DNA of 10,352 nt, taken from positions 1 to 10,352 of the IMG/VR virus record IMGVR_UViG_2695420596_000008. One strand, given 5' to 3'. The stretch comes from a virus. Lineage: Duplodnaviria; Heunggongvirae; Uroviricota; Caudoviricetes. This document shows positions 7,433-8,257 of this stretch, piece after piece. The notes under the pieces are model-generated. The model was not told where the DNA came from and did not search any database. It worked only from the letters and a program-made list of their open reading frames with translations. The first letter of the stretch is position 1; the number at the start of each line of letters is the position of its first letter. A program made the translations under genes and the position numbers.

Positions 7433-7463
7433 GGCAAAGAAAACCCGGCGCTGAGGCCGGGTT
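7433..7463 (-). terminator. Intrinsic terminator ending the cI-side operon, just before OL/pL
   Basis: Minus strand: AACCCGGC-CTCAGC-GCCGGGTT (8-bp stem) followed by TTCTTTGCC. It lies 20 nt after the stop of the 42-codon ORF. Confidence 0.7.
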
Positions 7464-7482
7464 CTGTCATCTAACTTAAGTA

Positions 7483-7611
7483 TCAAGCCGCTTTTTGTGA
7501 ATGATTGATGTGAGCTTCAAAGTCGCGGCGTAGATTTTGAACGCGCTCTACACATCCGCGCATTTCAGCCAAAAGCTTACTAACGGCAGTATAGTCAAAC
7601 GCTTTAGTCAT
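7483..7611 (-). CDS. Hypothetical small protein (42 aa), second gene of the cI-downstream cassette
   Basis: Hand-translated because it is below the ORF cutoff: MTKAFDYTAVSKLLAEMRGCVERVQNLRRDFEAHINHSQKAA*. The SD GAGGGG lies in the 15-nt gap after the 120-aa ORF (taaacGAGGGGaaaaaaaATG), and a terminator follows directly. The product is predicted helical and slightly basic. Confidence 0.55.
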   Translation of the reverse strand: MTKAFDYTAVSKLLAEMRGCVERVQNLRRDFEAHINHSQKAA

Positions 7612-7626
7612 TTTTTTTCCCCTCGT

Positions 7627-7989
7627 TTAAATGTAAGGCTCAACATCAAGGGCTGCTATTGCTGCGCACAATGCGTCAGGATCGTCAGCATCGATGGCTT
7701 GAGCCAGGTCATTAGCCAGTATAAGTAACTTATCGATGACAGCGATTTCGCTGGTCTTATCTACACGAAAGTATGGGAGCAGAGCATTACATACGTCTCT
7801 GAATGTCCGTAATTCTGCGACAACGTTCGAAAAGGTAGGATCTTTCTTACGAAGATCCACCAATGGCGCTACTTTAGCTGTTTTCAGCATTGCACTAATC
7901 TCGCCAATCATTGTTCCATGCAGACGATTAAATTCATCAACAGCTCGGTCATGCAAGCTCTTGTTGATTGGCAATACGTTTTGGGTCAC
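7627..7989 (-). CDS. Hypothetical protein (120 aa), first gene of the cI-downstream cassette
   Basis: The start is a GTG preceded by AAGGAG with an 8-nt spacing. The product has no TM segments, is acidic and looks helical (C-terminus ...LAQAIDADDPDALCAAIAALDVEPYI). It is on the same strand as cI. I recognise no family. Confidence 0.7.
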   Translation of the reverse strand: MTQNVLPINKSLHDRAVDEFNRLHGTMIGEISAMLKTAKVAPLVDLRKKDPTFSNVVAELRTFRDVCNALLPYFRVDKTSEIAVIDKLLILANDLAQAIDADDPDALCAAIAALDVEPYI

Positions 7990-8257
7990 TAACTATACTC
8001 CTTATATAGGTGTTCGCCAACAGATTTTCAATATGACTTGGGCGATTTCTGAACAATAAGCACGATTTAGCAATGATTAATTGATGTTAAGCACAAATAT
8101 CTCTACATCGTGCATTTTTAACTATTTATACACATAAAATCTAATAAATGGATATAAACCTTATGATGATTTTTCTCAATCGAATTGAATAATGATCTCT
8201 ATCACATCACCCAAACGTCTCTTCAGGCCACTGGTTACCAGCTATGTGACGATGAAG

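Follow-up and report, generated by a model that had tools for sequence, protein, structure and literature searches.

A pair of small genes in the immunity region of a lambdoid prophage is, as far as its sequence and genomic settings can tell, a self-contained, mobile accessory unit (moron) of temperate Enterobacterales phages. The pair was analyzed in IMG/VR virus record IMGVR_UViG_2695420596_000008, positions 1 to 10,352 (Duplodnaviria; Heunggongvirae; Uroviricota; Caudoviricetes), and this whole stretch of 10,352 nucleotides (nt) is referred to here as the window. The cassette lies on the minus strand, between the cI-type repressor gene and a pL-like promoter, and consists of a gene for a 120-amino-acid (aa) protein followed by a gene for a 42-aa protein. 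Conservation indicates that both open reading frames (ORFs) are real genes and that they form a tightly linked two-gene unit on the repressor strand. A function is proposed tentatively: it is possible that the pair works as a labile-peptide/stable-partner exclusion module, active in the lysogen against other phages. This reading is preferred because of the positional analogy to rexAB, sieB and sieA, together with the apparent asymmetry between a stable and a labile partner.

Conservation of the gene pair

The larger ORF (7989-7627, minus strand) opens with GTG, and a Shine-Dalgarno (SD) sequence, AAGGAG, lies at 8003-7998, 8 nt before the start codon. A 15-nt gap (7626-7612) carries the SD of the small gene (GAGGGG, 7624-7619), and the 42-codon ORF follows directly 3′ of it at 7611-7483. 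The original prediction, made from the letters of the window, had drawn both frames, the gap and the ribosome-binding sites in just this way, and the coordinates are confirmed. In RefSeq both ORFs are already listed as hypothetical proteins (WP_000193240.1 and WP_000158654.1).

The pair was surveyed at more than 40 loci, from 13 named Enterobacterales genera and from metagenomic contigs. A small ORF of 42-44 codons with its own GAGG-type SD stands 12-20 nt past the stop of the large gene at every locus first collected (34/34), and nine further loci that were retrieved through the small protein all have a gene for a protein of 120-128 aa directly upstream (9/9). From Escherichia to Proteus, Providencia and Xenorhabdus, identity falls to about 42% for the large protein and to about 30% for the small protein, and over the loci the two identities co-vary (Spearman 0.63). 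The ratio of nonsynonymous to synonymous substitution (dN/dS) is 0.05-0.07 for the large gene and 0.06-0.4 for the small gene, which argues for purifying selection on both. Two conditions attached to the earlier proposal, that the genes be conserved as a pair and that the 42-codon ORF be conserved as a protein, are answered by these data: the genes stay adjacent at the 34 and the nine loci, and the small ORF keeps its length, heptad pattern, Cys20 and Ala-Ala end at a low dN/dS. The proposal of a two-gene unit on the cI strand is likewise borne out by strict co-inheritance, shared orientation and a common terminator.

The complete 0.57-kb core, at an identity of at least 99.8%, occurs as 101 copies in 89 of 5,426 complete Escherichia coli genomes, with up to three copies per genome; carriers include O103, O26:H11 and O111:H11 strains from humans, cattle and poultry. 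The large-protein family is small, with 14 clusters among 5.8 billion proteins and 36 representatives at 50% identity among 1.84 billion proteins, and its full-length members are standalone proteins, mostly of 110-130 aa. The small-protein family comprises 24 clusters, all standalone, 22 of them 42-44 aa long and the other two shortened to 37 and 30 aa. Organism-named members recovered outside E. coli by the large- and small-protein searches all belong to the Enterobacterales (Citrobacter, Enterobacter, Pantoea, Hafnia, Serratia, Xenorhabdus, Proteus, Providencia, Dickeya and Atlantibacter). Within the phage collection, only Proteus phage Pm34 has the cassette, as gp26 (124 aa) and gp27 (43 aa) directly after its repressor gp25. 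Both products already have a place in PHROGs, the large protein in phrog_13858 (E 5e-73) and the small protein in phrog_12503 (E 2e-26), two families of unknown function. On one metagenomic contig (L044, from JGI; L numbers denote loci of the survey), the small gene at 3001-3093 is frameshifted to 30 aa and the upstream 120-aa gene is intact; the contig is either misassembled or a variant that naturally has the large gene only.

Synonymous sites behave differently in the two genes. When the small ORFs of E. coli, Enterobacter and Serratia are compared (window 7483-7611, L003 5377-5505 and L004 4295-4423), the proportion of synonymous differences (pS) is 0.13-0.19, as against 0.49-0.60 in the adjacent large ORF, and the central ~70 nt are virtually identical. 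The low pS of the small ORF could reflect a recombination mosaic or an added constraint at the nucleotide level. RNAalifold, run over divergent loci, detected no conserved RNA structure in the small ORF that would explain its nucleotide hyper-conservation, and a search of Rfam with the cassette returned no match.

Mobility, flanks and the promoter block

The cassette is found 3′ of, and co-oriented with, at least eight different S24-type repressors of 215-255 aa, and it also follows a 130-aa, RacR-like repressor that has only a helix-turn-helix (HTH) domain and is accompanied by divergent ydaS/ydaT. In other loci it adjoins an Arc-type repressor and a P22-type antirepressor (L033), lies between a ribbon-helix-helix (RHH)/Bro-N pair and a convergent tail-tip J gene (L004), adjoins a tail fibre gene (L034), or has no upstream gene on its own strand (L005, Xenorhabdus). 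The Arc/antirepressor, tail and HTH-only-repressor contexts indicate that the cassette is tied neither to the rexAB slot nor to S24 repressors. The rexAB slot to which it was originally assigned is thus correct for the window, where it runs from cI to pL and where a related phage carries other cargo, but is too narrow for the family, which also occupies Arc/antirepressor and tail positions.

That related phage is the Stx1 phage AU5Stx1, which has the same 3′ end of cI, the same following ~55 nt, the same terminator and the same right flank, but a different and shorter cargo consisting of a 47-aa ORF. The alignment is near-identical through GGCCTGAAGAGACGTTTGGGTGAT and diverges after it. From the flanks in common, the swap boundaries fall at ~8203 and ~7465; the ~55 nt past cI (to ~8203) are shared backbone, and the cassette-specific cargo begins at ~8203. 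Of the hallmarks of a moron, polymorphism by swap or presence, in several contexts, is documented by AU5Stx1 and by the repressor, Arc/antirepressor and tail settings. As to a promoter and terminator of its own, the terminator is clear and conserved; the block upstream is promoter-like and strongly conserved, but its predicted start sites fall at or after the SD and GTG.

The terminator (7463-7433, minus strand) closes the unit and reads AACCCGGC-CTCAGC-GCCGGGTT, then TTTTCTTT. Its hairpin consists of six G-C pairs plus A-U pairs around a 6-nt loop and is followed by UUUUCUUU; the 71-nt stretch that contains it has a minimum free energy of -19.2 kcal/mol. A simple terminator scan overlooked this site. 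The hairpin and T-tract had been placed correctly in the original prediction, although the stem described there as 8 bp of GC is in fact made of six GC and two AT pairs. A GC hairpin with a T-run stands just past the small gene in 12 of 13 distinct loci; the loops vary among loci, and the Xenorhabdus stem differs. In the window the terminator precedes the pL-like promoter TTGCCA-17-TAAAGT at 7239-7211.

At the other end, the cI-type repressor gene (8962..8258, minus strand) is the upstream neighbour of the cassette. Its 234-aa product combines an HTH with an S24 peptidase (in Pfam, Peptidase_S24 at E 3.8e-16 and a weak match to HTH_3) and is labelled 'LexA family transcriptional regulator' in RefSeq. 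A small hairpin, GTGAC-TTCATC-GTCAC, overlaps the cI stop. The spacer from this stop to the 120-aa ORF (8257-7990, minus strand) has a length of 268 nt and a GC content of 0.30-0.38, and a terminator scan of its minus strand found none; the earlier description, of an AT-rich spacer without a convincing terminator, still applies.

A hyper-conserved promoter/ribosome-binding block occupies 8034..7978 (minus strand), with the pattern aTTGAAAA-N5-TTGnnn-N5-CCTATATAAGGAGTATAGTTA-GTGACCCAAAAY, and covers ~45 nt 5′ of the start codon plus the first four codons. When the upstream sequences of 18 loci are compared, positions -28 to -1 show 80-100% identity in most locus pairs versus ~40% at the third codon positions of the same pairs, and an excess of this size argues for selection on the DNA or RNA itself. 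Identity at these positions is lower in L005 and L023, and in L031 the block is replaced by a canonical promoter (TTGATT-16-TATAAT) ~60 nt upstream. Two candidate promoters lie in the block on the minus strand: P1, with -35 TTGAAA at 8031-8026, a 17-nt spacer and -10 TATATA at 8008-8003; and P2 (TTGnnn-16/17-TATAGT), with its -35 at 8020-8015 and -10 TATAGT at 7997-7992. P2 is the only positionally conserved sigma-70 match, scoring up to 11/12, a value reached in Xenorhabdus.

By standard spacing rules, P1 would start transcription just past the SD, and P2 inside codon 2. P1 alone therefore does not explain expression of the 120-aa ORF. The promoter proposed originally, TTGAAA-17-TATATA, is exactly where it was said to be (8031-8003), but with its predicted start past the SD it is insufficient for the larger gene. 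With starts at or after the SD and GTG, the 120-aa ORF must be translated from longer transcripts, for instance by read-through from cI, which would include the SD and GTG since no terminator intervenes between cI and the cassette. Transcripts from the conserved promoter or promoters would for the most part serve expression of the small protein alone. In lambda, rexB has a separate promoter (pLIT), and a promoter of the cassette that serves the small gene only would resemble it. On this layout the cassette is expected to be expressed in the lysogen.

Alternative starts downstream of the GTG were considered as well and are not conserved, so the GTG/ATG start stands; the N-terminal 26 residues of the large protein are clearly translated, since they show synonymous changes and the downstream starts lack conservation. 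The conserved upstream block was compared by eye with LexA, CRP and FNR boxes and with a sigma-32 promoter, and none was a convincing fit.

Farther upstream lies a distal block (8035-8079, -46 to -90 from the GTG; CATTGCTAAATCGTGCTTATTG...) with the pattern AAAtcGTGC-N6-8-TGTTCA. It is 78-87% identical to the corresponding sequence of loci whose coding regions are ~65% identical (L003, L034 and L036). As the distal block is more alike than the coding regions, regulatory and coding regions have been shuffled independently.

The edges of the slot hold further recurrent elements. Past the repressor stop (8203-8245), the motif GGCCTGA(A/C)GA(G/C)ACGTTT is common to E. coli, Enterobacter and Pm34 despite their different repressors. 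It is the last conserved stretch before the AU5Stx1 cargo diverges, and may be a recombination joint or a 3′-end element of the repressor transcript. Just beyond the terminator, several loci carry a convergent gene of 69-81 aa on the opposite strand (L003 5657-5887, L023 4668-4880, L036 5183-5392 and L034 1711-1956). Two of these copies were scanned, of which that in L036 matches PF10965 (DUF2767) and that in L034 has no Pfam match; the convergent genes look like further small morons in the slot. In Providencia (L041), a DUF3024 gene and a 100-aa ORF lie between cI and the cassette.

The idea that the cassette is carried by plasmids, in the manner of an addiction module, was also considered and rejected. 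The sole match is NZ_CP148434.1, a 2,162-bp 'plasmid' record that is largely cassette (hits H70 and H106) and is probably an assembly fragment or artefact rather than a replicon.

The two proteins and their possible function

The 120-aa protein has an isoelectric point (pI) of 4.9 in the window and of 4.2-5.2 across the family, so that it is always acidic. AlphaFold2 (AF2) models it as a helical bundle of four to five helices, with a predicted local distance difference test score (pLDDT) of 82. Two motifs recur, GEISxMLKxAKLxPxxxL..NPSF and the C-terminal LxAAIAALDEKPYI-COOH, and the conserved positions are mostly hydrophobic, Ala or Pro, without conserved polar catalytic residues. The peak 19-residue Kyte-Doolittle hydropathy is 1.22, and no transmembrane (TM) segment is predicted. 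A Foldseek search with the AF2 model gave E values no better than 0.6 (PDB) and 0.3 (BFVD), all to generic helical bundles. An acidic, all-helical protein without TM segment or catalytic motif is also what the original prediction had described.

The small protein is modelled as a single helix over residues 7-41 (pLDDT 90, falling at the C-terminus). The helix has hydrophobic residues at heptad a/d positions and invariant D6, L14 and Cys20, the last at a core d position; with a peak 19-residue hydropathy of 0.34 it, too, has no predicted TM segment. On its own, an amphipathic helix of 35 residues needs either to oligomerise or to pack against a partner. Net charge varies across the family, with pI values of 4.2-9.1, and of the 'basic amphipathic helix' proposed earlier the single heptad-patterned helix is retained, whereas its basic character is restricted to the E. 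coli allele.

The C-terminus of every one of the 22 full-length small proteins reads (K/L/Q)AA, and several have Pro at position -4, as in IP(K/Q/L)AA. A terminal Ala-Ala-COO- is the key ClpXP determinant of ssrA-type degrons, and other cellular proteins that end in Ala-Ala are ClpXP substrates (PMC7652416). All full-length members of the family carry this C-terminal Ala-Ala-COO-, as an ssrA-like degron would, and by its tail the small protein would be a ClpXP substrate that is turned over rapidly.

Neither protein could be assigned to a characterised family, in line with the original prediction. Pfam, NCBIfam and PADLOC gave no match for either protein or for the homologues from the Proteus phage, Pfam scans of 34 family members gave scattered noise only, and a profile search among PDB sequences matched nothing but designed proteins of helical or repeat type, a compositional signal; with the Foldseek result and two PHROGs of unknown function, these searches leave no confident match to a housekeeping phage function, which the original prediction had named as grounds for abandoning its proposal. 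In the Pfam scans no DNA-binding domain (HTH, RHH or AbrB) was detected in either protein, and a text search of the paper library for the WP accessions and PHROG identifiers found no match. Homology to TomB-Hha was tried and rejected: hhalign gave a probability of ~1% against a TomB sequence, and there were no Pfam YbaJ or HHA matches.

A generic helical bundle, mostly hydrophobic invariant residues and one heptad-patterned helix point to binders rather than enzymes. No TM segment, catalytic motif or DNA-binding domain is predicted in either protein. Their most probable mode of action is binding, to one another and/or to a target protein, and the two would form a complex. In lambda, rexAB lies next to the repressor and N region; P22 keeps sieB in such a position and sieA next to immI. 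By analogy, the cassette sits where prophages keep accessory genes expressed in the lysogen, that is downstream of repressors, in Arc/antirepressor (immI-like) regions or beside tail fibres.

The exclusion reading, tentative as it is, can be spelled out as a sequence of steps. The 42-aa peptide would be a labile ClpXP substrate and the 120-aa protein its stable partner. In a healthy lysogen the continuously made peptide would mask the larger protein. A superinfecting phage that stops host gene expression or perturbs ClpXP would cause the peptide to be lost, and the freed 120-aa protein could then bind a phage or host factor and block the infection, by exclusion or by abortive infection (Abi). 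The logic would be that of a toxin-antitoxin (TA)-like switch with no enzyme. A bolder version holds that the pair founds a new class of prophage immunity module that needs no enzyme, a minimal 'guard' circuit unlike Rex, the known TA/Abi modules and all PADLOC systems. In it, a nested promoter whose transcripts lack the start codon of the large gene would over-produce a coiled-coil peptide, ClpXP would continuously destroy this peptide, the peptide would mask an effector, and its loss upon infection would unleash that effector; this version is distinctly unlikely.

Several points weigh against the exclusion reading. Its mechanism is drawn from architecture alone, and the start sites of the cassette are predictions based on spacing rules. 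No toxic or enzymatic fold can be recognised in the large protein, and type II antitoxins typically have a DNA-binding domain, which the small protein does not. Among the window proteins and the 34 family members, Pfam, NCBIfam and PADLOC revealed no toxin or antitoxin homology, and PADLOC-DB v2 contained no family at E of 1 or below for the two proteins or their Proteus phage homologues. The Ala-Ala end could be conserved for helix capping or partner contact instead of degradation. In L044, an intact large gene next to a broken small gene speaks weakly, as a single case, against a partner that is lethal when left unneutralised.

A first alternative is that the pair tunes the prophage's own lysis-lysogeny switch, through repressor stability or induction, with the ClpXP-labile peptide as a timer or damage sensor. 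The usual place of the cassette, directly 3′ of the repressor and co-oriented with it, would suit such a role, and the other recurrent context, the Arc/antirepressor region, is likewise a switch locus. There are precedents in 434 Hex, which is co-transcribed with cI from pRM, blocks RecA-stimulated repressor cleavage and excludes P22 (PMC3564112), and in RexA, which biases the lambda switch (PMC11077077). A specific repressor partner, however, would be expected to co-vary with immunity type, and the cassette does not; it accompanies many unrelated repressors, including the 130-aa RacR-like protein that has no S24 autocleavage domain, and tail genes besides. No DNA-binding domain was detected in either protein. 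A role in the switch is rather unlikely.

The pair might instead be a lysogenic-conversion factor that acts on host physiology, as a ClpXP decoy or competitor or as a binder of a host regulator. Phage lambda offers parallels: for RexB, which occupies the same slot, protection of ClpP substrates is reported, and CIII not only is degraded by FtsH but also inhibits it. Such a factor would draw on the conserved C-terminal Ala-Ala degron (PMC7652416), on the modelled nature of both proteins as purely helical binders and, by analogy, on a slot and strand that are expressed during lysogeny. A 42-aa substrate, however, would need high expression to compete with the cellular ClpXP substrates, the strictly co-inherited 120-aa partner is left without a role, and no homology to known anti-adaptors or protease modulators appears in Pfam. 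This reading, too, is rather unlikely.

An addiction module that stabilises the prophage, with the 120-aa protein as toxin and the 42-aa protein as labile antitoxin, would account for two small, tightly linked and strictly co-inherited genes, one of which has a tail that resembles a protease degron. Nevertheless it is very unlikely, given the lack of similarity to toxin or antitoxin families in Pfam, NCBIfam or PADLOC, the absence from real plasmids (the 2.2-kb record being the sole match), a large protein that is acidic and devoid of conserved polar catalytic residues, and the intact large gene beside a broken small gene in L044. Finally, the notion that one or both ORFs are chance frames without function, which the lack of any known domain would allow, has negligible probability and is already refuted by conservation: the pair persists from Escherichia to Proteus, Providencia and Xenorhabdus at ~42% and ~30% identity with its lengths, SD, spacing, heptad pattern, Cys20 and AA terminus, dN/dS is well below 1, and both ORFs belong to established PHROG families.

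Neighbouring features, known systems and significance

The window spans the early-left and immunity region of a lambdoid prophage, with int, xis, exo/bet/gam, kil, cIII, N, cI, cro, cII and O. The N gene (7092..6748; PF25694) follows the pL-like promoter. At 5558-5616 (minus strand), Rfam recognises the lambda cIII thermoregulator RNA element (RF01804; 88.5 bits, E 5e-21). Inside the O gene (~10100-10250, plus strand), the encoded protein has ~3 copies of a tandem peptide repeat, IPQNEGGSPKMRD, which corresponds to the ori iterons typical of lambdoid O genes. Between N and a DUF2528 gene, a 149-aa ORF (6240-6689, minus strand) had no match in a Pfam scan; its long hydrophobic stretches, judged by eye, are suggestive of a membrane protein. 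A related 170-aa ORF is found at the equivalent position in the Enterobacter locus L003, and sieB lies in that neighbourhood of the E. coli prophage L001. The 149-aa ORF may be a second exclusion-type moron.

Among known systems, lambda rexA-rexB is closest in layout. Both are two-gene units in the same slot and on the same strand, with no terminator after cI and a terminator before pL, and the cassette may also have an internal promoter that favours the distal gene. There is, however, no similarity in sequence or fold, and Pfam, NCBIfam, PADLOC and the PHROG annotations give no match to RexA or RexB. RexA, at ~279 aa, is RdgC-like, in contrast to products of 120 and 42 aa here; the cassette also occurs outside the cI-N interval, and its coding capacity has been put at tenfold smaller. 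RexA (31 kDa) binds DNA as a dimer, and RexB (16 kDa) is a membrane protein with four TM segments (PMC11077077). Both cassette products are soluble by prediction, without a TM segment, so that no counterpart of a membrane partner such as RexB with its four segments is present. The cassette is thus like the rex operon in position and, by analogy, probably in expression logic, but is not a member of the Rex family.

Phage 434 Hex is alike in placement, being an accessory gene that the lysogen transcribes together with the repressor, and its roles there include both exclusion and modulation of the switch (PMC3564112). Contrasted by description, Hex is a single ORF of ~158 aa that overlaps cI, whereas the cassette has two genes and is not bound to one type of repressor. 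With type II TA and Abi modules the cassette has in common two small, adjacent, co-inherited genes, one of them with a ClpXP-type degron. In P1 phd-doc, the labile partner is degraded by ClpXP. Unlike those modules, the cassette has no homology to their families, no DNA-binding labile partner and no toxin fold, and its gene order is large, then small. The tomB-hha (ybaJ-hha) pair also consists of an acidic helical protein of ~120 aa and, after it, a small helical one in which a single Cys is conserved; without homology, and with Hha being a 72-aa protein that binds H-NS, the echo is architectural only. Finally, the cassette behaves like the morons sieA, sieB, bor, lom, nun and BstA in being an autonomous unit between backbone genes, polymorphic by presence/absence and cargo swap, at positions expressed in lysogeny; its proteins are unrelated to any of these.

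No feature of the cassette is unprecedented in kind. Both families were already catalogued (phrog_13858, phrog_12503 and the RefSeq WP entries), and what is new is the protein pair, in a moron of the lysogeny slot. This slot is the classic lysogen-expressed position that gave Rex, Nun, Hex and BstA, and at only ~0.8 kb the cassette is experimentally tractable. An effect on the stability of prophages in pathogenic E. coli is conceivable if the pair tunes induction or ClpXP. If it is a defence or exclusion system, a very small, enzyme-free two-protein system would join the defence repertoire, one in which a protease-timed peptide gates an effector.

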